From positions 1 to 44,397 of the forward strand of contig BDIP01000023.1 in NCBI GenBank assembly GCA_003568945.1: 44,397 nucleotides of DNA, given 5' to 3'. This DNA is from Kipferlia bialata (Eukaryota). Positions 1 to 18,940 of the stretch are shown here, in pieces (the stretch's first letter is position 1; each line of letters starts with the position of its first letter). Both the position numbers and the translations under genes were made by a program. The notes beneath the pieces were generated by a model. The model made no database searches. It was not told where the DNA came from and saw only the letters and a program-made list of their open reading frames with translations.

Positions 1-3000
1 TCGAGGTTGAGACTGATGCTGGTGTGTCTGTTTCCACAGCGGACAAGGCCACCCCCCCCCCCCCCCCCCCCCCCCCGGCCGATATTACTTCTCCTCTTTC
101 CCATTTTGCTTCACTCCCTGTTCTCATATCGGATTGCAAAATCCTTATATCATGGATATTTCTACCTCAATCTCTCCCTGTCTCACACACAGGTGACGTC
201 TCTGCCAGTTCCAAGATCCAGGTCGCCATCGACGGTGTCATAGAGGAGCAGGGTCTAGTTGCTCAACAGGCAACTCTAGGTGGGGAGTTAGGGTGGGGGG
301 GGGGATGTTCGTGGTCTGATACTGATACTTGGATGTCAATATTAGTAGTTAGTTGTCAGTACTTGGAGGATACTCAACTTGTATGTATTGGACTTTTCTC
401 CCCATTCTAACCCAGACACCCAAATCAACTTCATGGATGCGAAGGGACAGTCCTTTTTCCAGCAGCTGCTAGAGGCAAGTGCCTCTTCCCAGGAGGCAGC
501 TGGGACACTCGGAGGCGAGGCAGTATCCTCTGTGGCTCTTCCAAAGGAGCAGGGGGCTACAGGTGCCAAGACTCCCCCTGAGCACGGAGAGCCAGTGCCA
601 GAGGGACTCCTATCAGAGGACCAATTAGGGCATCTGAGGCAGATTAAGGCGGAGGTGAGTTCGACTCAAGTATGCTATCAGAAATGCAATCATTACTTCT
701 ACTGAGAGACAATAAGCTTATTTCACAAGATTATTTTCATATTTCTGATACTGTGATGACCCCAGATTGTGAACTGGCACCGTGAGACCGACCGAGCCGA
801 GATGAACTGCCTACGCGGTGAGAGGAATGCCCTGAGGGACTCTCTCGCCAGAGCAGATAGAGTGATGTACCAGGGGAGAGCGACAGGTGTGTTCATATGT
901 ATACATATTCACTGGGGAAGCAAGAGAGGTAGTGTGGTCGGTTGTGTATCTATTCACTCAAACGCCCCTTCAGCTGTCAACTATCCTGATGCTACAACTA
1001 TTCCAACCTTGACTCCAGGTGAGTGGAAGCTCCGTCCAGACGCCCCACCTCTGGATTATGAAGCAGAGATCAAGCACCTGAGGGAGAGAGTAGATCAGGT
1101 GGGGGTTGTAAGAGTATCTCTTATCTATTTCTCCTATATTATATGTGATTTCTCTGGCTCTGATATCCAGGGATACAAGGCCAGAGAGTCAAAGGAGAAC
1201 TTGGTAGATCACTACTGCCAGTATCTCAGGAAGATACACCAAGATCTTCTCAGGTATATCTATCATTGTGACATATTGTTCGCCATACCAGAGATGTATA
1301 GTATTCTTTCGGGTACTCTTCTGTTCCCTTATGAGTTACTGTCTCATATGCAGAGTGTCCTATGGTCGGAAGGTAGATGCCGGAAAGGTGAAGGTCCTCC
1401 AGAAGGACTTGGCCGCACTGCAGCTCAGGTACGACAGAGAAACCAAAGCATTGAGGAGGGACCTTGCTAAGTCCGAGGGCCGCAGAAAGACTGAGAGGGG
1501 ATCTGCTGCCATTCTGCTGGCCAAAACTAGGAAGGCCAAGGGCCTGGATGGACCCACCAGTCAGGTGATACTCCCATACAACTCTTAGTTATACTGTATA
1601 GTGTTTATAGTATTATATCGATACTGATATGTATGGATGTGGTCTCTAAGACTTAGGTTCAGAAGGACCTCGACCAGGCAGAGAGAGAGGTGGAGCGGCT
1701 CACTGCTGTAGAGGCTGAGTTGAAGGGGAGGCTCAAGGAGAGTGAGGTTGGTGGTGTTTGTAGCCGTATACTCCTGGGTTCCTCCATACACCCCCTAATT
1801 GTTGCATCTGCTGACCTATCAGACAGCCCTGGTTGCCAGTCAGAACGAGGCTAAGGAGCTGAGACGCCAGACGGAGGCCCAGACGCAGGAGGTGTCTGTG
1901 GTGAGGGAGAGGATGAGGGAGCTGGTGGAGATGCAGGCGGCGCATGCGGAGATGAACCGGGTGGCCAGGTGCGATTGCTTCTCTTTGCTACACACAGTAT
2001 GTGACCCTTGTCTATACTCATTCCATATCCACTCGTCTAACACTTCAGCGCTCGGAGAAGTGCCAGAGAAGTGGCTGAGAGGGAGGACAAGGAGTCCCTG
2101 GCGCGGATTATGAAGGAGGTTGAGAGCCTCGCTGCTGATTTCCAGCAGGCTGTTGCTGAGGCAGAGAGAGAGAAGGGACTGAGGACCCAAGTGGAGGGTG
2201 AGCTCAAGGTGGCCAAGGCTGAGATCCAGAGACTAGTCGAGGCAGAAGCAGACGCAGAGGCTCGTCGGGAGCAGGAGAGAGAGGCAGAGGAGTCTGAGTC
2301 AGATGAGCCTCCAGTGGTGAGTTATATGTCTACATATATATGGCAATATCTTAATCATGGCAACACACTCATATTCTCACTCAAGGTCTTTGATGCGAGC
2401 ACTGTATCCCAAGGTGGTGAGATCCATGTCATGGGGGGAGTGCACTCTACGCACAAGGTACATATATGTATAGGATTTACACAACAACCAAGGTGCAGGC
2501 ATCTATACTGGTGTATGTTAGAGACACTATTGATACACTTACCCCAGGTGCAGGTGTATAACACAGAGACTGGGCTGTGGAGGCACTTAGTGGCACCTCC
2601 CTCCTCCTTCCAGAGGGGTACACCCAGTGTGGTGATGGAGACAGAGAGTGAGACAGACTCTGAGGGCGAGGACTCTGAGCCGAGTGAGGTGCAGAGAGAG
2701 AGGACGCAGCGGGAGGAGGCCGAGCGCACTGCCCTCTGTGCCATGTGTGTCCCTCTAGGTGTAGACATCGACGACCATCACTGCTGCAGCCTAGGGGATG
2801 TTGTCCTGCCCCACCTGGCTACTAGAGTCACCTCTCTGGAGGCTGATCTGGCGGGTCTCAAGTCGAGTGAGCAGGATGACTCTAACCTTGCCATCGCAGC
2901 AGTGGAGACCAGACTCTCCAGTCTAGAGGCACTCAGCGACGCATTCTGTGCCTTTTCCGACGACAACCTCAGTGACATCCGCTCCCTCATCGAGCGTGTC

Positions 3001-4027
3001 ACGGCGTTTGATATCCCCTCTCTTCACTCATCCATCGAGGAATTCCAGAAGTACCTCTCAGTGTCCCAGAAGTATGACAAGGCTTCTCTTGATCAATTCT
3101 TCGACGATCATCCGCTTACAGAGGTGACTCTTTTATTTCTTGGCGAGTGGCAACGTTTGCCACTCTTCCCGTCTGTAGCTATTGGCGGTATGCATATATA
3201 CTTCCATTGATACTAGTTTTGTAGTTCTCACCATTAGCTTGTGTCAGCAGACTGTGATGAAGTCAGCCGTAGGCTCCTCCCCCTCAATTACCAGATCATC
3301 AAGCAGATGAATTTTACTAGGACCTTTGAAGAGGGCTTACCCAAAGTCCTAAGGGATGCACTAGAGCTCTGCAGTGATGTGATGCGTGTGAGGCTCATCC
3401 CCCTGCCTCAGAACACCACTATCCTCTCCTTCCCCGACCAGCAGAAGTACTTCAAAGCCGAGGGGTACAACACAGAGGTGCGCACTCTCTTCTCGGTAGC
3501 CAGTGTGCTGCTCGACTCCCACAGTGTCTTGGAGGAGTATGAAGAGGCCCATAGGGCAGCTCCTCAGAAGGCTAAGGACCTTTTGCATCTGATCAGGAGG
3601 GCCAGGACTCTGAGGGAGCGGCTCTCCAGTCTGAGTGCCAGACACACTGAGGCCACTGCCCTGCTGCATGAGTACCAGAGTCTGTTTGTGGAGGCAGAGA
3701 CGGAGCTGGCAGTGACTGAGGCCTCCATAGCCAGTGGGACCAAGCAGCTCCAGCACCTGCGCAACTCTGGCAAGCGCAGCAGGAAGCTCAAGGTATAACT
3801 GTACAGTGTATAACCTATATACAAATGTATTCCAGATACATACTTAGTGTGCCAGTAATGTCTTATGCCAGGAGCTGGCCTCCCTCCGGACCAAGCTGAT
3901 GGGACTGCAGAAGCAGGTGGAGCAGAGGGATAGCATCAGGGAGAGACTGACCCACCATCTCATCTTCCCAGAGGTGGCAGCAGCCCTTGGTCTGCCCCAG
4001 CAGCCCCTAGAGCCAGAGGAGGAGTAG
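1..4027 (+). CDS. Multi-exon coiled-coil protein with a remnant kelch-like blade; 5' end lies upstream of the window
   Basis: About a dozen phase-compatible GT-AG exons can be chained (approx. 194-279, 416-654, 766-886, 1019-1098, 1171-1253, 1354-1565, 1657-1746, 1823-1968, 2049-2316, 2386-2457, 2548-3123, 3238-3792, 3872-4027). They encode E/R/K/L-rich heptad segments and one kelch-like stretch (IHVMGGVHSTHK|VQVYNTETGLW), and end ...HLIFPEVAAALGLPQQPLEPEEE* (TAG 4025-4027). Confidence 0.8.
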
Positions 4028-4928
4028 CTTCAGTGAAGCGGTAGACTATCACTGACAGTATGTATGACACATACTATGTCATCAGCTTGGACAGCACCAT
4101 CATTTTCAACTACATATTCATTCACTGCTTTCTTTAGCCCTCCAATAGATTGACACAATAATTGTTGTTTAGACTCGATATAACGATTTCTGCATATTCT
4201 TGAGACTCTCAAGGTGAGAGGCAACTGAGGTATGTGGTCTTTGCGTTGCCATGACCACGACAACCTCTGACCTGGTGCCTAAAGGCCTAGTAGTAGTAGG
4301 CAAATATCACGTAGTGAACAGAGATCACTCAATTAGTACTGACTTTCTATATCGGGTCCCAGTGTATCATGTTGAGCCTCTAGGATGAAGAGAGGAGAGG
4401 TATGCAGTGTTCATATGCCAGACACTGAGAACTTCTCAGTGAGAAGCATCCATAAATAGTGTTCACTGCATTAGGGACTATATGCAATACCTGTTAAGTA
4501 TGATTGACCCGGGAAGATATCAAAGAAGCGCGTATGAAATACAGTCTATTGGAATAGAAATTTAGGCAGCAACATGGGGATGAGTGTTGTATAGGACAGG
4601 GGGGACACTGGAGAGACTCTCAGTAACAGTGTTCACAGCATCAGTCTACGCCTTGGATGTTTCATTGTGCTGACCAGGGACTTGTTGTCTTGCCTAATAG
4701 CATCTGGTACCTCTTGCCAACCTTGGGGTGAGAGAGATATGGATTATGTGGCATCGGCGACAATGAGGACAACTTGGGAAATGGCAATGTAATCTGAGAA
4801 CTATAACACACTGTCACTAGAGTAGAATCCAAAGAGAAGTATTGTTACACACATGGTGGAGGAATAGGATTGGGATCCAATTGTATTTGATGACATATGA
4901 CTATGGATGTACGGTACATCCGATGTAC

Positions 4929-5573
4929 CTCCTTCCATGTCCTCCCTGCCACCAGTGAGGCCGCACTCCTCCAGCCCTCCCTGGTGTTGCCTGGAGTGAG
5001 AAGAAGTTAGAGTAACATGCAATTGTCTCTTATCAAAGGATACGTTGTAATACTAGAGATGTGTGTAGAGGGTACCACTCACCGAAGTATGCCACTCCCT
5101 CCAGTATCACACTGTCCTCCTCTGGGGAGAATGGCACACACTGCATATCCCTAGTGCCCCCACCGCACACTCCAATCTTGGTCAGGAGGGCAGGACTAGG
5201 GAGTGTCATATCGATGAGAGAGCCGTTGTGAGAGGACATGTGAGGTGAGGACACCTCTCCCATTGGCACAGCACTACTCTCTAACACAGGGGTGTTGGGT
5301 GGGAGCGATAGGTCCCATGTCGCTCTTACAGTAGGTGTACCCTCCAGTGCACAAGTATCAGCTGAGGCACCAGAGTATCTGTCCCTGTCGATGGTCTCTC
5401 CATAGACGTGGCAGGATGCTGACTGAATGGCATCCCACTCATACTCCATGGCAGACAGCACCTTGTGTGAGAAGTCTCTATACCAGTTGGGATACCTCAC
5501 CATAATACTACTATACCTGCCCCGTGACGCACTCTCCCAGGCCCAGGGTGTAGTCCTCAGGGCTTGAGCACAT
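4929..5573 (-). CDS. Hypothetical spliced protein; 3' end unresolved (continues below 4929)
   Basis: ATG 5573 MCSSPEDYTLGLGECVTGQ, phase-0 intron 5516-5462, then in frame with the 5033-5503 ORF (VLSAMEYEW...GVAYFG|gtgagt) and a further exon GNTREGWRSAASLVAGRTWKE|gtacat. No domain recognised. Confidence 0.5.
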
Positions 5574-6006
5574 CTCTGGGAGATGATCTCTCTCTCTTCG
5601 CAAACTGTGTGTGTCTTAGGACTCGCAGATATGACGTTCTAACAATTCAGAACCAAACTTGTACCGGGTTTGTGTGAGAGATAGCCACTCTCTTATAGCA
5701 ACAAGGGTGTGAGGCTATCTATTTGTGGACCAGCTCTCCTGTAGTGTCAACAGTGTATGTACACTACAGTGAGATCAATCACTGAAGCGGCACTAAGTGG
5801 AGACACCAGAAGTGATGGCTGTTGAGTGATAACCTTGATGTCTACAGTGATACTATCTCAGTATACTGTTATCGGCAGGGCATACACGATTCTTTACAAC
5901 CAATCCATTCTGACTCTATACCTCAACCTTTGTGCCTGAGTCTCAGACTATTTCAAGTGGCTCATATCCAACGTGTGAACTCCACACCCTTAAACCCCCA
6001 TAGACA

Positions 6007-8485
6007 ATGGAGCTGTCTCTGTCACCAATTGGTATCCCTCACTACCCTGTGCAGCGGTCTGCTGTAGCATGGATGAGTACCACCAACCCAGATGGTACCA
6101 TACCCACGCTGCGAGAGGGACAGCCATGGCAGGTCATGGTTGTCGGGGAGAACGCCCTGAGAGCCGAGCACTGCGTCGTGTTCTCCATATTCATCAGCCA
6201 TGGGGAGGTTGGGTGCAGGGCTGTTGAGAGCTTTCGTCCTCCCTGTGAGGGTACTACCAACCACCACACCCTCACACGGGTAGGTGGTATCGTGTATCTC
6301 TTTGGGGGAGCAACAGGCCCCCTCCCCCCATCGAGGCAAGACCTAGTCAGAGGCTGGTATGGCTACATGAACAGAGAAATGGGTGTCTACACGGTGAGTG
6401 ACCACAGTTGGTCCAAGGTCTCACTGGACGGAGGAGTGCCACCCAGGTACATGCACACTGCATTTGCCTGCAACAACGAGCTGTGGGTGTGTGGAGGTGT
6501 TGACAAGTCGGGTAGATACCTCTCAGATACCTGGTGCTACAACCCGTCCAGCAAGTGCTGGTCCATGGGGCCAGCACTGCCTGTTACTCTGGTAATGGGC
6601 GCTGGATGCACAGACTCTAAGGGGGTGGTGCATATAGTGGGGGGCCAGACATCACGTAACCTACATCTCTCTCTCATTAACGGGGTATGGTCCAGAAGGT
6701 CCCTTCCATTCTCCTGCTATGGTGCAGGAGTTGCCTGCATTGAAGACCATATGTGGGTGGTAGGAGGGGTAGGCCATGAGGCAGGTGTACATGGGTACAA
6801 CACGAGCACAGGTCTTTGGACAACACCCGCACCTTCTGCGCCAAACCTCACTCTTTCAAATGGGGATGTTCAGTACAGAGAGGTCATGACAATAGTAGAC
6901 TCCTCTGGACCAGTGGGTCACAGCAGTATTGGCGGATACACAGACATGTGCATCCTGGGTCCCCATGGGGTGCTTGTCCATGGCACATCAGGCACCTACA
7001 TTGGTGTCGACACCCAGGTGAGAGACAGGGTTGCTGCTGAGTCGGATGCTGTTCAGATGGCTAACAAAGCTTTGTGTGAGTTTGTCTCGCTTTGCCGGGA
7101 GCTACATGGCCAGTGTGCGAAGATGTCGGAGAAACTATCCACACTCTCTCCTCCCACACTCGCAACACTGATGGATCACCACGCAATGCCGGACACACCC
7201 TCTTTACCAATGGTTCATCTATACAGTGGAGACCAGAACACTTTGGTGTCCATGCTGCGCAGTATGAGCGTACAGCAACCTGTAGGCGGTCTTGCAGTTC
7301 CCCTTATGGAATCTCTTGCAGACGCTGAGTTTCCAATGGGTCCCTCGCTGGCTGCATGTAGTCTCTACCGGGAGGGAGATGCAGAGACCAAGGGTCAGAT
7401 AGCCGCTGCATATGGTGCCCTCGGCCGCCTCCTTGCAGTGACAATGCTGCAACAAAACATCCCTGACGGTGTGTTAGGGACCACTGTCATAGTTGGTCTA
7501 CATCCAGAAGGAAAGGCACTCCTACACGATCCTAAGATAGTCTCAGGTCTCTTCAGGGCCGACTTTCCTCGGCAGTGCCAGTCCTTAGACACCGTATGTG
7601 CTAATCCTACTGGATTGGATGTGCGCTTCTCTGACATACCTGGATGTACCAGCACTGAGGTGTTTGGTTTGCGATAACTGTTCTAATACATATCTAATAC
7701 CTATTTTCTTACTCTCTGCATCAATTTTAACCCATGTGCTATCTGTTGACAACGTGGCTGCGTTCCGTCCAGCCTATGAGAGGGGTTATGTGGATCTGAT
7801 GATGGAAGGAGTGTCTCTGATTACAACTGGATTCATGTCTGTAGACGACCGCTGGGAGACTGTTGTGACTGGGCTTCCCTTCCACTGCTTCTCTCGTGCA
7901 TTCCAAGGCATACCTACCTTATCTGCAGAGCGGTATCTCGGTGTCCTTGATATCGCCGACGACTCTCTTCGTCAGTCATTCAGGGGTGTAGTGAATAGGC
8001 TCTGCAACACTGGTGACCAGGCAACACTGCGCCACATTCTGCTCTTTGCCACTGGGTCCGGTGTGTTTCCACGTGACAAGATCACTCTGGTCCTCCAGTC
8101 AGACGAGACGATCCCAGTAGTCACATCCCATACATGCAGCCGCACCGTCAGTGTCCCCAGTTCTGCTCTGGATCATTTAGAGGCAGCACTCAAGGATAGT
8201 ATGCAGGAGTGTTGCCAAAATGCAGGATGCACCAATGATAGCGACACCCCCCAGTGGATGATACTCGAGCAACTCATCCTGGACACCCTTAACAGCACCC
8301 TCAATGAGTTCAGAATACTGGCCCCTGGTATCCACTCCTGTCCAAGCTGTGGAGTGGCAGTGATAAAGACAGAGGGGTGCAACCATGTGGAGTGCAGATG
8401 CGGCACGCACTGGTGCTTCGAGTGTGGGTTCAAAGGTCGTGCCAGGGAAGAGGTGTACAGGCACATGAGCAAGGCAGGACACTAA
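6007..8485 (+). CDS. Kelch-repeat + HECT + RBR-type Rcat (RING2) E3 ubiquitin ligase, ~800 aa, two exons (6007-7659, 7736-8485)
   Basis: Kelch blades: HTLTRVGGIVYLFGG, PPRYMHTAFACNNELWVCGG...YLSDTWCYNPSSKCW, HIVGG, WVVGG. HECT motifs in the expected order: GGLAVPLMESLADAEF, YGALGRLLAVTM, DFPRQCQSLDTV, LDVRFS, VLSVDNVAAF, TGFMSV, LRHILLFATGSGVFP, TSHTCSRTVSVP (catalytic Cys codon 8135-8137). Rcat: CPSCGVAVIKTEGCNHVECRCGTHWCFEC...VYRHM (GCNH Cys codon 8378-8380). Confidence 0.88.
7660..7735 (+). other. Candidate non-canonical GT-AT intron (76 nt) in the E3 ligase gene
   Basis: AT-rich segment gtgttt...ttttaacccat containing no AG dinucleotide. Removing it joins the two ORFs in phase 0 and restores HECT continuity (CTSTE|VLSVDN). 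Confidence 0.6.
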
Positions 8486-8750
8486 TTGTTAGTGTGTCAC
8501 CCCATTATTGCGAGATATTCCCAGCCACCAATAGATAATGGTGCACTATCGACAGCCGGTACTTAACAGTTGTTGAATCACTCGTTTAGCATTACTCAGT
8601 TCCATCATGGAACTTCCATGCGAAATTACTTCGGTATTCGTCCTCTATTGACGTGATACTATATTGTATGTGTTTCTAGAGAACTGTAGTGGTGCAAGAG
8701 TACTAAGAAGTACAGTGGCTTCCTTATATTCTCTCCGGTGAGGAGGACCG

Positions 8751-11700
8751 CTAGGCCTTCCTGGTGCAGAAGTAGAGGCATCTCGCTGCGTTATTCCACC
8801 GATGGGCTAGGAAGACCCATCCTTCACTGGTGGTACCAAGAAGGACCACTCTCCCGTATTGCGCCGCAGTGTCAGTTGGCTGATGTGAGGGTATGCAGAG
8901 ACACTTAGCTCTACCCGAAATCCCATAAATCATTCGCTATTCCTATATCCGTACCCTGTCTGACTCTGTGAGGTAGCCACTGACTGTATCGTAGCTACTG
9001 ACACACATCTCTACGCAAGGTAGTGGAGAGTTGTCCATCCAGCAGCGTAGCCCGTCTGGTGCAAGGAGATACTCCCTACCAATGACCAAGGGTATCCCTT
9101 GCCAACTACCATGTACACTTACGACGTAGTTTGTGTCCTGCGGTGAACTCCCCCTTACAGACACGCCGCTGCAGTGAGGTAGAGTGTCATGACTCCAGTA
9201 CGCACAAGGGGACAGGGACGCATGGCGTTTGGTCCTCGGTGAGTAGTGCACAATATGGGCTGTGTCGTGAACCAGAGCACAGTGCAGAGACGTGCGACAG
9301 TTACCATCAGTATCAGGCCAGCGCATCCATTGCTGTGTGGTAAGGCCTATTCCATGTAGATTGACGATATGTTGTATGGGTGTACTTGGTAGCTTACCTC
9401 CTCTTCTATGTCGAAGGCCAAGCACAGGTGCTTGTGCAACAGAACCAAGTAGTTGGGAACATATATCAGGCTAGGCAAAGAAAGTCCTGTCGACTTGAGC
9501 TCGTCATGCCGGAGTCTAAGGCTCCATTCTGGCATTCGGACTCTGCTCCATGTGTGAGTTGCGAGGTCAAACGTCACGATGGTATCCGAGTCGGGGATAC
9601 ATAGATAGACTCTACTCTCGTCAGTCACTACTTTAGTGCGCATCGCATTGATTTTTCGCTGGCTAACAGTACAATCTGAGAAGGGGCCTCCTGCAACTGC
9701 TGTCCAAGTGACGGATGGGCGCATCTCATCACTCTGAGTTCCACTCTCTACCTTGGAGAACCACCACTGGTCTTCTATCAGGAGCAGAGCGCACGCAGGG
9801 GGTATTGCATAGGACAACAGGACATCTCCAGTCGGAATAGTGTGTTGCACTTCTAGCAGGGTGTATGAGAGCTCGGCAACCGCTGGGGCTTCGACCAGTG
9901 AGACTCGCTCAATGTATGGTTTGACAGCGCGGTCCCTATTGGTAGTATGTGCAGATGAAACCGCAGCACTTGTCACCACAGTGCGTATAGCAGCAGGTGT
10001 TGTTGGGTGAAAGCGAACACTAGACACTACTCCAACCTGGTGCAGGAGGGTGAGAATGTGTCTCACGTTGTGACAAGTGAGTGACGCTTGGTTGAGGTCT
10101 AAAGTGTGTGTGTGGATTGTGGGTCTCTTCGGTAGCATCACACTTAGGACCAAGGCGTGGCTCTCGGTGACACTCTGTAGCCGAGAGGCAATAGTGCAGA
10201 GAGCAGCTATCACTGGTAAGTCATCCCTCGGCATACCAGGGTTGAACAACGGAGTCCCGTCCGCGATCTGGCTCTCCGTGGCAGAGTTTAACAATGCATC
10301 CTTCAGTATCTGCAATGGGTGAGTACCGTCCATAAGAAGGGGTAGCAGTTTGGGAATGCTGGCGTCACCACATACTCTCTGCAGTGATAAGGCTATACAG
10401 TGGCACATGTAGTGCAGAGCAGGTGACATCGAGAGGCAGTGCTCAATGGCAGTTCTCAGACATGACGCTAGCGCTATGTCTTGACATACATATGCTGCGA
10501 GGTACAGTTGCACAGGTGTGTCTCTACCATCTCTTGGAACACATCCAGTGTCAAGGTATGTTGACATACCAGAATATATCTGGTCTACTCTTCTCTGGAG
10601 CACTATCTCAATGTATGCTTGATAGGTTGGAAGACCAGTGTACATGTCTCTGAGAATACAGCTGTATTGGGCTGACACATGTAGACTGCTGACCACTGAG
10701 TCTATGGCAGAGACAACCAGACCACCGATCAGGTGATGGGTGTCAGGACACTCCACTGCAAGATGCAGGAACTTCTCGATCAGAATAGGGGTCTTAGACT
10801 CCATCTCATGTGGTGGCGTTGAACGTGTTGTAGCAGTTCCCCCACAACTGAGGTGTTGAAACACCGCAAGGATAAGGCTGGGCCAGTTGTAGGAAACCTG
10901 GTAATGTGACAGGATATCTCTCAGTGTGTCGTTCAAAGACGGAATACCGAGTTTAGCCACAGCCCGTGCCACTAGACACATCCATATAGGAGGGGTGCAA
11001 TCAATCGTCTGCCAACGTCGTGCAATGTGGGTCAGAACACTCTGCGGATCCATAGTGCAGTTCTGTGACGTGTCTGAGAGGGCCTGAGGACTCTGAACAG
11101 ATAGTAGGGACGTGCTGGGACATATACTTACTTCAAGGTCGTTATATACCAAGACCCTTCGAGCTCTGTAATGGCGAGTGTCATACCCGGCTAGAAGGAG
11201 CAGGCATGTATCCACCCCTGTGCGACAGCCAAAGGCATTTGTGTCAAAGGGAGGGCAATGACTCCCACGTGGTAGTATTCGTGATACTTCGCTGGCCCAA
11301 TGCAATTTCACAATACTAGGGTCGTCATCTGTGAAGGGATCCTGGGTGAGATACACCCAGTCCCCCAAACATGTGGCTGTTGTACATCTCCCAAGTGGTA
11401 GCGGGTTGTGTATTCTCCAGCCTGCACAGGGTGACAGTGAGAGATGGAAACCATTTAGCCCAAAGATGTGAAGGTCGTCTGCTATCCATTGAACAGGACA
11501 GCCGGTGTCCATAGGCAGAGCGTGTCCTCTATCGTCTGTTGGAACGTCCATAAGGGTCTGCCACACCTGCAAATCGGTCTCATATCTCCAGGTGTCACTC
11601 AGGTAATCTCCACGCCTTTGCGGCAAATGCGAGAATTGAGGATAGCCCCCAGCAACAATGACAGAGGGGCCATCTGAGGCAGTGACGCAATTGGCTCTCC

Positions 11701-12477
11701 CAAGAGGGTACATACCAGGATCCATTGCCTCTGGAGGTACTTCCATCACCCACTGCATAGCGTCAGTGTCCAGTCGGAGGAGACCCATAGGTGAGCCGTC
11801 CACCTCAGGATGTCGTTGGACGGGATAGTACACGCTGTTGCCGACCTGAGCGCCCTGGGGGTCAGACGTGACACTTAGGGGATACGCAGTTGTTGTCTTT
11901 ATCCGTTGGAAAGGGTGTCACTTTACCTTGAGGTTGATGGAGTATAGTTGCATCTCTGGTGGCATGTGCCCAACAGCCCTCCACTCCCAGGTCACGCAGG
12001 GGTCATGTTGTCTGTCGGTGAGGGGATAATGATCACTATAGCGGCATATACTGTATACTGTACAGTGCCCACTAGAAGGCCTCAGAATTCAAAGAAGACT
12101 TCAGTGCCGTTGTGGAATGATTGGTGTGTCCCACAGTTTGTAGTTCATAGTGTATGAAACCACACAAGTACAGTCATATGTTTGTGTCTTGTTATAGCAG
12201 GTGACAACACCTACCTCCGTCTCCCCATGTACACCTGACGGCTGGGTACTGGCTGAGAGCGTCTGACAAAGAGGACGCGTCCATCAGCGAGGCCCGTGAG
12301 TCCAGCGTCTAGCATGTGGACAGTGGTGTCTCTAGGTAGATATGGCAGCCACACTACCAGCTCTCCATCCTGGTCTCTCTCAGGCCCATGCCTCACTCCC
12401 TGTACAGTCCGGTGGGCATCAGTTGGTTGGGGGACACTAAGGATTGGTATCAATTCAACCTCAGGGGGGTTATCCAT
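8751..12477 (-). CDS. Large multi-exon protein: kelch-like propeller, helical region, second kelch-like propeller (paralog A)
   Basis: Start ORF 12477 MDNPPEV...RR|gtaggt; exon ~12012-11926 (QHDPCVTWEWRAVGH...LK|gtaaag); long exon ~11855-9396 (kelch: VIVAGG...YLSDTWRYETDLQVW; RVYLC...VTFDLATHTW); exon ~9333-8954; last exon PTDTAAQ...CTRKA* ending 8751. Junctions are phase-compatible. Confidence 0.75.
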
Positions 12478-13289: not shown

Positions 13290-16200
13290 CTAGAACTCCA
13301 GTAGAGCCTCAGGGAAGTCAACCTCCACAAAGTACATCCCTGAGAGGACCACCACGACCCCAGCCCCACCCAGGGGCAGTACATGGGAGGGAGTGTTGGT
13401 GTAGTCGTAGGGGTACTTGACTGTGGCAAGTGGGAGCCACTCGCCAGTTACTCTGTCACACAAGCACACACGAACACCCAGTACTTCTCTGTCTAGAGCA
13501 TCGTCATACTCAGCATGGACCTTGAAGAGCCCCACAACATGGCGACCCACTCTGACACTGGTGAGGTATTCTTTCAGAGAGGCGCCAGGCACACCAACCC
13601 GAAGACCCTCGTCAATCTTGGTGAACGACAATGCAAAATCGCCCCATTGCGACTTTCCATGACAGGGGAGAGCTATGGCCGTTTCATGGCCTAAAGCGGG
13701 CTCATGACGACACTGGTCAGAGCAAGGTAACCCGGCACTAAGGCATGCCCACTCTCCAGCACACGACCTGTCTGTATCGTCGTAGGCCCACACCTGGGTC
13801 GCCTTGCCTACTCTCCCCACGACACAGACGCACCCTTGCAGCACGCCGAGGGAAAAGACGGAGCTGATATCGGGCCCGCCCTCGGTCTGGGTCCACTCTC
13901 TAGTTGCAAGGTCCAGCACTACCAACTGCAGTGGCACATCACCGTACTGTGTAATGCAAAAGTACACACTTCCTCCCACCAAAACTGGTCTTGTGGAGGT
14001 GATTAGTAGAGTGCTGAAGGTACACTGGGGTATGGGGGACTGATCTAGGGACAGTGACTCCCAAGAGTGTGTGAGGTTGTGAGTGTGCGGATCCTCAGCT
14101 CTGTGAAGAAACCCAATGGTGCCCTCATTGCTGTACATCCCATTTCTCCTTCCTACGCATAGGATCTGGTGTGAGCGGGAGATCAATGACTATCAAAAAC
14201 TAACGTAGAGTCCCCACACAATATATGAGAGTATACCATTTACATACCGTGTTCTCTGAGACTGGAAGCATGAACCTCACACCTTCCAGCGTTGCGTGGT
14301 CACGTAGCACTCTTCCCCGGCTCTCTAGAGTTAGTTATCTTTGAAACGTCATTATGACCTCAGGTCAATTGAAAGCAAATACACTAGTCTCAATGTGACA
14401 ATTCAGTGACCACACTGTAACATGTTGATTCTGTAAATGGGTACCTTGTGCTGCACGGTCAATCATGACCTCAGGCAATAGCACACCCTCCACACCTGAC
14501 CTGTGGTACAGCACAGTCACGTCACCAAACCTACTCTCCCTCACCACCTCACCAATCAGAGGAAGGACTCTGCTCTTGGGCTCATGGGTTGTACCAGTCA
14601 CAGTGCAGGAGGGTGTTGTGTGTTTGGCCAACAATGCACTGACTATAACGTTGCGGCAGACATCTGGAGTGGAGTGGTTGAACACTACTGAAGGACCAGT
14701 GTCAGGCAAGACGAGATCCATGGAGTGGAGGAAGTCGAGTAGACGCCGCATGTTCTCACCCTGATCTACACCGACCAGGGTCACAGCGGAGAGGTCGAGT
14801 GCAGCATGCTCGGCAATATCCAATGAAGAGTGACTCCTGTACATGTAGTGCCAGAGGGGTGTGTAGAGTGGCAGTGCGACACAAGCTGTGGCCATGACAG
14901 AGGCCATTTCCAGTGGGCTCAGGTACTGTGGGGTGAAAGATGGAACAGCCCCCTGTCCTATCATGTTGGCCACAAGTGTGGTGAAAGTGGCCATAGATGC
15001 ATAGTCTGGGAGTGCCAGAGTGCCCTCCAAAGAGCTGGACACCCCCACCTCGATTTCCCTCTCCCACCGAGCCACAGCTGCCGCCACATACACCAGCCAT
15101 GCCTGAGTCGCTCCATCCTTCTGAGACGTGACGCGGCAGGTAGGGTAGGCAGCAGTCAGAGCACCCAGAAGGTAGGCCAGGACAATGCCTCTCTTGGTAT
15201 ACCCCGCCCCAGCCTCCTGTTGCCCCTGTGTTGACACCACACTCGTCACAGTACACAGTAGCTCCATGAGCCTGGTAGCCAGTGAGGACACAGCACCCTC
15301 TGACTCAGACTTTGTGTTCTCAGACACCAGCTCTGCCACCTCTACACCCAGAGAGCAGAGCACTCCATCCTCACCCTGCAAGGTACACCCCTCCAGTACT
15401 CCAGCGGTACTCTTGAGCCTACGTGCCAATCTGTATGCCAACAGACCAGGGTGGACATGGAGCTGGGCCGAGGTCTGTTGCAGGTACTCTCCACCCAGAC
15501 ACTCGATGAGAGAGTCTGGAAGTGAGAGCAGGATCCGCCCTTCATCAGTCTCCATGGAAACAGTGTCGACGTCTGTGAGCTGTCCAACACCATTCATGAA
15601 GTCAGACTGGACTGAGAGGCTCCCACGCTCAATCCATGTATCACTAGGTACATGATATGGGTAGACTGCGTTGGGTTCCCTGTGACCGCCGCTGACAACA
15701 GCGAGAATGAAGGGTCCTACTGCCACTAGGATAGGATGGCGGGCTGGGAACGGGGGCCTGGCAAGAGACACCCACCTGCCATCAGCAGAGAGCCGGAGGT
15801 GCCTCTTTGGACTCTCGGTCCAATCTGCCATGAGGCCAACGACATGGAGATCTGAGCCATGGGAGACAGCACTAGAGCCTACGAGGGGGAATGGGAGGGA
15901 GGGAAGACGACCCCATCCTGTGGGCCCCTTAGTCCAAGCGTCAGTATGGCAGATGGGCTCATAGCCTACTGACTCGTCGCTAGACTGCCCACCGACCAAC
16001 ACTAGCTGATTGTGGAGACACGATGTGATGCATGCATGCCGTCTCTGAGGCCCACTCGATGGAGTAGTAGATATGACCTCTGTGGCCTTGCACACCAGAG
16101 TGCCGGGTACCAGTTCCACCACAGAGACCTGGGTACCTTGGGGGCGAGAATCGTACTCATTCCCATCTCCCAATCCCTCTACCAGGAGTAACTGGTCACC

Positions 16201-17734
16201 CACCCAGGTGACACCACCGACGAGTGCCAAGGGGATGGTAGCTGGGACCGGCACCATCCTTTCAACGGCATGAGACTCAAGTGTACGAAGGACTCCCTCT
16301 AGCTGAGCTGTCTCCCTATCATCATAGTCGCTGCCCCTCCACGACTCACCAGGCACACTGAGTGCCATCCGGGGTGCAAGGGATACCATATGGGAGGGAG
16401 CCTCATGATAATCACGGGTAACACTCACAGTCAGTGGTGTCGATGAGAGGCCAGGGGTGATACGCTCACACAGGCCTACCCGCTTACATGCTCCTCTGAT
16501 GAATGGAAGAAGGGGAGTGATAGCTAGCTGCCAGGGAGAGGCCTCGCCAGGGGTATCTAGAGAGACGACCACGTCAAGAGAGAGGATATGCAGAGCAGCC
16601 AGGAGCCTGGGTCCAAGCCAGGAGTCGGCAGGAGCACAGAGAGGAGCCTCTGACAGATACTGACATACCAGGTCTAGATCAAGCACTCCCTCGGCTCCAT
16701 CACACACCCCACCCTCAATTAGGACCGTCATGGGCACACGCAGGAGCTCTGTGAGGGATGCGAACTCCACACCAACGGCCATGATTACAGCAAGCACACT
16801 CCTGGGAGGGAGGTCAATGAGAGATGAATGCCCTGTGTCGACCGGAGTAACACCGTCCCTCACTCTCTGCAGTAGTGTGCACAGAGCCTCGAGGCCCTCA
16901 TGGCTCCGGCATAGCGCTCTGGCAGCCCACTGAGGCTCAAGTCCAAGGGAGACTGCCTGATGCAGTGTGGGGCTGCACGCATCAGGAGGTGTCTCCACCA
17001 CACAGCAGGTGCTTCTGGCGGCATCGCCTGTCTGCAGAAGGATGGGAGCTCCCTTCTTCCGCAGAAGGAGGACAGAGGCTGGATCTACTGCGCACACTGA
17101 GTGACAGTCCACATTGAAGGTGACCTTGCCCTTCTTGCCCTTCACGCCACACTCTCCACTCAGTTGGCAGAACTTCCAGCGCCCACCATCCCCTCTCCCA
17201 TCCGCATTAGGAGTAAACACGTGCACCTGGTTGAGGTGTCTCTTTCCCCCAATGACCAGCATCATAGGGGAGGGGGAATGTACACGCACTACACAGAGAG
17301 ACTCTGCCCGGAACACAGGCGCCGGCAGCTCAGTCCAGGCATCAGATGTCAACCCCCTAGTCGCCAGTGCGGCCACGTGTAGAGTCAGGTGTCTGAGAGC
17401 CCCATCGCTGTTCCCCAATAGCACATGGAGGTACTCACCCAGCACACTTGTAGCCCAGCGTCCCACATGGAATCTCCCAGGGGGGGTCTGTCTCGCAGTT
17501 CGGACTCTCCGACCACCAGAGGACGGGACAGGGGATGGGGTGGGGCACAGAAACTGGATGTGCCTGAGAAGGGATGCCATACCCCATCCCTTCGACCCAC
17601 CCCCCAGTCTGATACTTCTCTCTCTCTCCCCCTCTCCCACACCAAATGCTTTCTCAGGCGCATCGCCTTCAGATGGGGTATCGCCTAGTACACGTCTCCT
17701 GCCGGATACAGGGGCATGGACAACCCAGAAGTAC
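13290..17734 (-). CDS. Large multi-exon kelch-like propeller protein (paralog B); 5' exon(s) lie in or beyond the N gap
   Basis: The 14365 and 13290 ORFs join via introns 14444-14325 and 14247-14166 and a 77-nt exon (AQ|ESRGRVLRDHATLEGVRFMLPVSENT|ILCVG). Kelch-like motifs: MLVIGG...VHVF, RRHACITSCLHNQLVLVGG...TDAW, SVYFC...VLDLATREW. A possible first exon MRQNGKE|gtaagt lies at 18674-18654. Confidence 0.75.
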
Positions 17735-17863
17735 CTGGGTAAGGGAAATGGAACTGATAGATGGGTTGGGGTTCTTGAGTGACCACAGTGCTTGTCGGGA
17801 TATTGCCGGATTGGGGGGGTGGGGGGGGGGGGGGGAGACTCTATATCTGGTGTACATATTATT

Positions 17864-18457
17864 NNNNNNNNNNNNNNNNNNNNNNNNNNNNNNNNNNNNN
17901 NNNNNNNNNNNNNNNNNNNNNNNNNNNNNNNNNNNNNNNNNNNNNNNNNNNNNNNNNNNNNNNNNNNNNNNNNNNNNNNNNNNNNNNNNNNNNNNNNNNN
18001 NNNNNNNNNNNNNNNNNNNNNNNNNNNNNNNNNNNNNNNNNNNNNNNNNNNNNNNNNNNNNNNNNNNNNNNNNNNNNNNNNNNNNNNNNNNNNNNNNNNN
18101 NNNNNNNNNNNNNNNNNNNNNNNNNNNNNNNNNNNNNNNNNNNNNNNNNNNNNNNNNNNNNNNNNNNNNNNNNNNNNNNNNNNNNNNNNNNNNNNNNNNN
18201 NNNNNNNNNNNNNNNNNNNNNNNNNNNNNNNNNNNNNNNNNNNNNNNNNNNNNNNNNNNNNNNNNNNNNNNNNNNNNNNNNNNNNNNNNNNNNNNNNNNN
18301 NNNNNNNNNNNNNNNNNNNNNNNNNNNNNNNNNNNNNNNNNNNNNNNNNNNNNNNNNNNNNNNNNNNNNNNNNNNNNNNNNNNNNNNNNNNNNNNNNNNN
18401 NNNNNNNNNNNNNNNNNNNNNNNNNNNNNNNNNNNNNNNNNNNNNNNNNNNNNNNNN
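17864..18457. other. Assembly gap (594 N) flanked by poly-G tracts
   Basis: Directly visible run of n. Confidence 0.99.
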
Positions 18458-18473
18458 GGGGTAGAGTGGGGGT

Positions 18474-18513
<40 letters not shown>

Positions 18514-18940
18514 ACGAGCGCGCGAGTGGTTAGATGGCCAAGAAGACTCTTCATAAAGTGGACACATATACATAGCCATCTGACTGTATCTCCCATGTCC
18601 ACACCTGTATCGATAACACATAGTAATGTACTTATACACCAATACATACTTACCTCTTTGCCATTCTGCCTCATCCAGTGCAGTGACAGGGCTGTCCTAA
18701 CGTCCCCCCCTGGGTGGGAGTCTGGTATTTTGAAATGCCCTCTCTAGAAAGGGACTCTCAAAGAGAGTAGACTCTCTAGAAGAGACTCAAGTTCAAGATT
18801 GTCTATTGAAGTGAACCCTTTCTTTGCCAAAAACAACAGCCCAAGGCAAAGCTACTGCTAGGTGAGCCCATGAGCCAGGCCTAGTGGGAAACAATATCAG
18901 TCATTCACACTCTCATTGCCATCATCATTATATTGAATAT

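Follow-up and report, generated by a model that had tools for sequence, protein, structure and literature searches.

HECT E3 ligases such as HUWE1, Smurf2 and Rsp5/NEDD4 have a bilobed catalytic fold, an HxC motif in the C-lobe and substrate-binding repeats at the N-terminus. It has been reported that HECT ligation requires a Phe at position -4 and that C-terminal tags hinder activity (PMC3738095). In Rsp5, the F806L mutation, which lies 29 residues after Cys777, impaired ligation and left thioester formation unaffected, and the mutant could be rescued by an N-lobe aromatic residue (PMC3738095). HECT domains take no C-terminal domains, according to a published survey. In RBR ligases, E2 is recruited mainly via RING1, and the helix before RING2 binds the donor ubiquitin (PMC9834252). 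The RCR ligase MYCBP2 has two catalytic Cys residues in one chain, and the ubiquitin relay between them spans about 24 Å (PMC9527308). Unusual HECT proteins have also been described. A highly divergent HECT domain is combined with a protein kinase in Naegleria and Ectocarpus (GL-Bikonta), and human G2E3 carries a non-functional divergent HECT domain beside active RING/PHD-like zinc fingers (PMC3673628).

In this study, we analysed a window of 44,397 nucleotides from Kipferlia bialata (assembly GCA_003568945.1, contig BDIP01000023.1, positions 1 to 44,397). A locus on the plus strand at 6007-8485 may encode a kelch region, a HECT-like domain and an Rcat/RING2 finger in one chain. It spans two ORFs in different frames, one at 6007-7677 (556 aa) and an open frame at 7589-8485. 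Coding exon 1, taken from the ORF list (551 codons, 6007-7659), holds the kelch region and the start of the HECT-like N-lobe. The second coding exon (7736-8485, 249 codons and a stop) holds the remaining HECT part, the linker and the Rcat. The two are separated by a predicted 76-nt GT...AT intron at 7660-7735, with the junction set by paralogue alignment between E551 and V552. A branch-point/3' splice-site-like motif, recognised by sequence, lies directly 5' of the ATG at 5990-6003 on the same strand and may mark where a 5' UTR intron ends. A first-pass annotation had claimed a kelch propeller here. This was borne out at 6007-7011 by a Pfam Kelch_1 match (E 1.3e-12 at aa 146-191 of the first ORF) and by 31% identity to the kelch of the paralogue P0007 (aa 84-271). 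The propeller is likely to have six blades; three fit the strict GG-blade pattern and the others were read by eye.

The HECT-like domain begins at 7174-7659 with the first part of the N-lobe (aa 390-551), delimited by the family profile and blastp, and continues at 7736-8206 with the N-lobe end and the C-lobe, delimited by the family profile, Pfam and the Atlas model. The Pfam HECT match of exon 2 was weak on its own (E 0.19). A profile of the Kipferlia family matched the locus at profile positions 5-180 in frame 1 (121 bits) and 177-337 in frame 2 (136 bits), crossing the frame change gap-free, and the first part of the N-lobe showed 32-42% identity to paralogues by blastp. The Pfam cut-off was seen to be passed solely by the paralogue P0006 (37.5 bits, profile 28-299 of 306) and by the HECT stretch of P0153. 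At E up to 1, PF00632 matched eight of the ten aligned family rows. P0008 was modelled with AlphaFold2 (12-row alignment, mean pLDDT 69.9), and the model gave the HUWE1 HECT domain as the top Foldseek match (E 9e-10), but with an rmsd of 10.7 and a TM of 0.37 by target; Smurf2 was at rank 15, and the remaining listed rows were kinases. The VIA-align lists for this model were full of kinases and did not reach the HECT part. The Atlas model of exon 2 had a TM of 0.47 to a HECT cluster and also resembled RBR clusters. A poor single-sequence fold of exon 2 (pLDDT 34.5) gave no Foldseek match at E up to 0.001, and the family profile matched no solved HECT among PDB sequences at E up to 10. These sequence and model comparisons indicate that the HECT identity holds at the family level, remotely, and that the predicted domain is very divergent. 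For the locus copy the identity comes from this family evidence and is weak from the copy alone.

The bilobed domain of about 350 residues is found at the family level, and the locus would span profile positions 5-337 if spliced. The SHTC motif that had been claimed is present at 8126-8137, within the Pfam-aligned stretch, and places the predicted catalytic Cys of the C-lobe at 8135-8137 (aa 685 of the 800-aa reading). The domain is not C-terminal. About 90 residues including the Rcat come after it in the locus copy, and an Rcat with its Cys comes after the HECT part in 11 of 13 paralogues. The next segment, 8207-8332, comprises a HECT tail lacking the Phe and a linker predicted to be helical from the paralogue alignment and the P0008 model, in which the linker helix has low confidence (pLDDT under 50).

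The Rcat/RING2 finger occupies 8333-8482 and has a predicted catalytic Cys at 8378, a His at 8384 and eight candidate zinc ligands. Among solved proteins, the best match was RNF216 RING2 (E 6.3e-7), whose catalytic Cys aligned with the predicted one; parkin and ARIH1 came next, and Pfam gave an IBR-clan match on this last finger (IBR_1, E 1.5e-4). An Rcat with intact Cys and His had been proposed, and these matches agree with it. The locus Rcat is 54% identical on average to those of nine paralogues. The zinc-ligand pattern was seen in all 12 family Rcats examined, as was a His at the third triad position, where RBRs have Glu/Gln; this His also occurs in 118 of 123 other matches. The residue two after the Rcat Cys is His or Arg in the family, and Arg in RNF216 too. 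We found no Pfam match to RING families in the locus ORFs or in the ten paralogues scanned. Each of these proteins had one IBR-clan match, which was always the Rcat itself, so that no IBR was seen between a RING1 and a RING2. In the locus, the 81 residues from Cys to Cys are taken up by the HECT tail, the linker and the Rcat start. Because the two Cys lie so close, there is no room for RING1-IBR, and the absence of both domains reported earlier is upheld. The Cys residues at aa 710-716 were considered as a RING1 remnant and rejected, as paralogues carry a G-[IV]-[TS]-[LIV]-G tail there. A tree of the Rcat (73 columns) was too weak for naming an Rcat donor. Outside Kipferlia, many of the closest relatives of the Rcat are proteins of about 1000 aa (P0022, P0029, P0030, P0045, P0064 and others) in which an Rcat is accompanied by a RING-like finger and a further cluster of Cys residues. 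Their Rcats share a YxHMxxxH tail with the Kipferlia family. At E up to 1e-7, most of these proteins matched nothing in Pfam, and a fungal protein belongs to one of the clusters. They are possibly an undescribed RBR-like family.

A search with exon 2 against 1.84 billion representative proteins gave 826 matches, the best 150 of which were listed. Eleven of the listed matches span the HECT part and the finger, namely the locus's own model P0002 and ten paralogues, P0003-P0012 (E 2e-44 to 1e-22); the others match mainly the finger alone. A second search added P0153-P0155. With P0152 omitted as a cluster mate of P0003 that is identical across the aligned part, 13 paralogues have the HECT-like part in common with the locus. 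All 14 paralogous records looked up were named Kipferlia bialata proteins. In the family plan, a variable N-terminus is followed by a helical region and a protein kinase, and these by the HECT-like domain and the Rcat. The N-terminus is kelch (P0006, P0007), LRR (P0009), ankyrin-like (P0005) or helical. The kelch that had been suggested as the substrate-binding part is present at the locus, but it is not the family's constant partner. Kinase catalytic-loop motifs were found in 10 of 13 paralogues, with a pseudokinase-like version in P0006; P0010 and P0011 are short models in this count. The kinase lies directly 5' of the HECT part in most paralogues. In the locus copy, the kinase and the helical region are lacking, and the kelch adjoins the HECT N-lobe.

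We also looked for this architecture beyond Kipferlia. A protist-wide search for HECT followed by Rcat had been proposed. The protein searches made here recovered about a dozen such genes, all from Kipferlia bialata, and no HECT-Rcat protein was found outside Kipferlia among the matches listed. Pfam found no HECT in 63 of the 139 listed non-family matches at E up to 1e-7, a threshold that would overlook most family HECTs themselves, and none in six more at E up to 0.1. The local family profile is blind to canonical HECTs, and its blank on other matches says little. By these comparisons, the predicted HECT-Rcat architecture is real, is shared by about a dozen genes and is no one-off.

We then compared the two predicted catalytic Cys residues across the family. 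Of the 13 paralogues, 11 retain the HECT Cys, which is replaced by His in P0011 and by Ser in P0012; in nine of the eleven, a His lies two residues before it. The Rcat Cys is also kept in 11 of 13; it is lost in P0012, and the P0154 model stops short of the Rcat. Both are retained in 10 of 13, which strengthens the two-cysteine reading. The spacing between them is 73 residues in seven of the ten two-Cys paralogues and 75-77 in the other three, against 81 in the locus copy, whose linker is eight residues longer than in most paralogues. Pairwise identity among nine full-length two-Cys members is 34-73%, with means of 47% for the N-lobe, 51% for the C-lobe, 49% for the linker and 62% for the Rcat. 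At the HECT site, 11 of 12 full-length rows have the Cys; as 54 of 319 columns reach this level of conservation, the site is not uniquely constrained. At +29 from the HECT Cys, a position taken as the -4 Phe by residue count from Rsp5 Cys777/Phe806 rather than by structural alignment, 11 of 13 paralogues have Leu, Ile or Val, and none of the 14 sequences including the locus has Phe. The locus tail has a small insertion and no Phe, in line with the first-pass annotation, which had noted the missing HECT terminal motif. The G-[IV]-[TS]-[LIV]-G tail motif is conserved in the paralogues. Partial losses occur naturally in P0006 (pseudokinase-like), P0011 (HECT Cys), P0012 (both Cys) and P0154 (ending before the Rcat), and these would be useful controls.

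The family resembles HECT E3s in its bilobed HECT-like fold, C-lobe HxC and N-terminal repeats, and differs from them in lacking the -4 Phe and in having further sequence after the HECT. Like the RBRs RNF216, parkin and ARIH1/HHARI, it has the Rcat Cys, a His or Arg at +2, eight candidate ligands and a predicted preceding helix; unlike them, it has a HECT-like domain in place of RING1 and IBR and a His at the third triad position. As in MYCBP2, two Cys residues predicted to be catalytic lie in one chain, with a relay proposed by analogy. In MYCBP2, however, a RING binds E2 and both Cys are in one unique zinc-binding domain, whereas in the family they are in the HECT C-lobe and the Rcat, and the RING and tandem-cysteine zinc domain of the RCR class are lacking. 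Since defining features of each class are absent, the family fits none of the HECT, RBR and RCR classes; if active, it would work like a thioester-forming E3. Compared by description, the Naegleria/Ectocarpus proteins share with it a highly divergent HECT and a protein kinase (PMC3673628); the main text of that report mentions neither an IBR nor an Rcat ('IBR' has 0 occurrences). G2E3 has a second E3 module in the chain like the family, but there the HECT is the non-functional partner (PMC3673628). The first-pass annotation knew of no described E3 class with this architecture. The literature search, with subscription journals outside its coverage, agreed in finding no HECT-Rcat ligase and no report of the Kipferlia family, and PMC7029713 and PMC6679479 added nothing on HECT-Rcat.

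Frame 1 of the locus copy is closed by a stop codon at 7675-7677, and 7660-7735 must be removed to give the 800-aa product. The donor looks normal, with a preceding exon ending in AG and an intron starting GTG (AG|GT), as does a branch-like TTAAC at 7727-7731, four bases before the end. The acceptor is CCAT and not YAG; the intron ends in AT where a canonical GT-AG intron has AG, and none of the four equivalent slides gives GT-AG. Its GC content is 0.32; a neighbouring gene has seven introns with RNA support, and theirs is 0.33-0.46. Six of these seven joints were shown as GT-AG by the RNA-type run X2 and one further was deduced from piece ends; nine further joints from X1 or X2 stand outside this count. 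All seven are GT-AG, end in CAG or TAG and follow an exon ending in AG. One neighbouring intron ends TAACCCAG, one base off the TAACCCAT of the locus. The simplest reading would be an ordinary intron whose last G became T. The first AG downstream, at 7771-7772, is out of frame from donor 7660 and leads to a stop after 559 aa. The AG at 7780 is in frame from this donor and loses 15 conserved residues, and a donor at 7667 with AG 7772 loses about 10. In Kipferlia bialata, 124,912 GU-AG introns have been reported (PMC5874029), and in the related Giardia one GT-AT junction is listed, spliced in 1.3% of reads (PMC10711314).

Public gene models split the locus into two genes of 556 and 216 aa. P0001 runs to the stop at 7675, and P0002 covers just 7835-8482. 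Regarding the 800-aa spliced product proposed earlier, the exons are open as expected, but the GT...AT intron, which the first-pass annotation left unmentioned, and the split models count against it. Because the intron has no acceptor AG, the 800-aa kelch-HECT-Rcat protein itself may not exist as one piece. We give an even chance to the copy having been recently disabled by the predicted AG-to-AT change. That it is spliced at GT-AT is rather unlikely, and that a cryptic AG rescues it, at the cost of 10-15 conserved residues, is improbable. An assembly error at the acceptor was considered unlikely, as X1 contigs match 86-12242 with 0 differences, though X1 is possibly the source of this DNA itself. 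Of the two-Cys members, the locus copy has diverged most (end branch 1.87 against a median of 0.41). Nine paralogues are invariant at 72 columns, and the copy deviates at 13 of these; with midpoint rooting it branches outside the other members. Given this last position, the long branch fits early divergence as well as decay. Its 800 codons are open save for the intron and its Rcat branch is short (0.34), which argues that the copy was constrained until at least recently. X2 gave no contigs over 4500-9500 at at least 90% identity, though neighbouring genes were covered, and this is not taken as evidence on expression; at 80% likeness there was slight depth in bins 7593-8760, from short pieces that diverge from the gene further on.

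The published rule allows no domain after a HECT; the HECT-Rcat family provides a natural exception to it and would part the two half-reactions of HECT catalysis. On the sequence comparisons, the predicted HECT lacks what the second half-reaction needs, and the predicted Rcat lacks what the first needs. Since these losses are complementary and the two modules lie at a nearly fixed spacing, a relay, as proposed in the first-pass annotation, is the best single reading. We put a little short of even confidence in the locus being a kinase-less member of the Kipferlia HECT-Rcat family, the family being a two-cysteine relay and this copy needing a GT-AT splice. The family does combine a HECT-like domain and an Rcat with no RING1-IBR and with both Cys in most members. 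By analogy with HECT biochemistry, the N-lobe would bind E2~Ub and the HECT Cys would receive ubiquitin as a thioester. The HECT would then be poor at finishing ligation, with Leu, Ile or Val for the -4 Phe and a tail that is not the protein end. The linker helix and the Rcat would move ubiquitin to the second Cys, as RBRs take it over from E2; the family keeps a conserved segment at the place of the pre-Rcat helix, though without RING1. Finally, the Rcat would unload ubiquitin onto a target picked by the variable N-terminus (kelch here), and the kinase of most paralogues would be a likely switch. It is possible, if tentative, that these proteins form a new E3 class in which the HECT only discharges E2 and passes ubiquitin to the Rcat, with about a dozen receptor-like members having swappable sensors and mostly a kinase. 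If the relay holds, the family would join MYCBP2 as a second two-cysteine E3 of independent origin, made from both classical thioester-forming modules, and an Rcat would be able to take ubiquitin from something other than an E2 held by RING1. The family provides ten natural two-cysteine constructs and natural single-site losses, for which standard assays suffice. Against the relay, the HECT is so divergent that the family profile matched no solved HECT, its Cys column is not uniquely constrained, and the -4 position was set by count and can be bypassed in Rsp5 F806L by an N-lobe aromatic. P0011, with an Rcat and no HECT Cys, and P0154, with a HECT Cys and no Rcat, show that the two sites are separable. 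For the locus copy in particular, the changed invariant columns, the non-AG acceptor and the split public models also count against it.

P0011 bears on a second explanation, which we consider improbable, in which the HECT N-lobe is an E2 dock replacing RING1, E2 passes ubiquitin directly onto the Rcat Cys, and a structural or regulatory role is left for the HECT Cys. Its intact Rcat without the HECT Cys would fit, but P0011 is a short 208-aa model lacking most of the N-lobe. The Rcat is the best conserved part (62%, vs 47-51% for the HECT lobes) and G2E3 is a precedent for a non-functional HECT beside active fingers (PMC3673628), whereas retention of the HECT Cys in 11 of 13 paralogues and of the His at -2 in 9 of 11 speaks for more than docking. 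To a third explanation, that the modules are independent, we likewise give a low probability. The HECT would ligate in a non-standard way, as the conserved G-[IV]-[TS]-[LIV]-G tail could replace the Phe and the Rsp5 rescue would allow, and the Rcat would be loaded separately, extend chains or merely bind ubiquitin. The P0154 model, with a HECT Cys and an end before the Rcat, agrees with this, but the Rcat has no RING1 to bring its own E2, and the near-fixed Cys-Cys spacing of 73-77 suggests geometric coupling. A last explanation, which we find very doubtful, is that lineage-specific shuffling of domains produced the family as a by-product, with idle ubiquitin modules as scaffolds and a decaying locus copy. 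In its favour, only one species was found among the matches listed, the helical and kelch parts recur in other combinations even 2 kb upstream, P0012 lacks both Cys, P0006 is pseudokinase-like and the locus has an AT acceptor and a long branch. Against it, both Cys, the His/Arg at +2 and the zinc ligands persist across 34-77% identity, where idle sites would drift.

Several neighbouring genes were also observed in the window. A spliced gene at 1-3798 (+), under one X2 contig, encodes a kelch-like fragment and a helical region that is homologous (E 3.6e-11 to P0153) to the one before the kinase in the paralogues. Neither a kinase nor a HECT was seen in this gene, which combines the family's parts differently. 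An open frame of 201 codons at 5033-5638 (-) stands head-to-head with the gene about 370 nt upstream and has no Pfam match. Long unbroken ORFs lie at 9347-11917 (-), 13290-14189 (-) and 14365-about 17700 (-) in this intron-rich genome. The first has Pfam kelch matches, and the last is weakly similar to the P0006 kelch; an N run of about 600 bases at about 17860-18450 breaks the ORF 14365-18696 (-). Look-alike X1 contigs at 80-90% were found over about 10.5-12.9 kb, which suggests recent duplicates.
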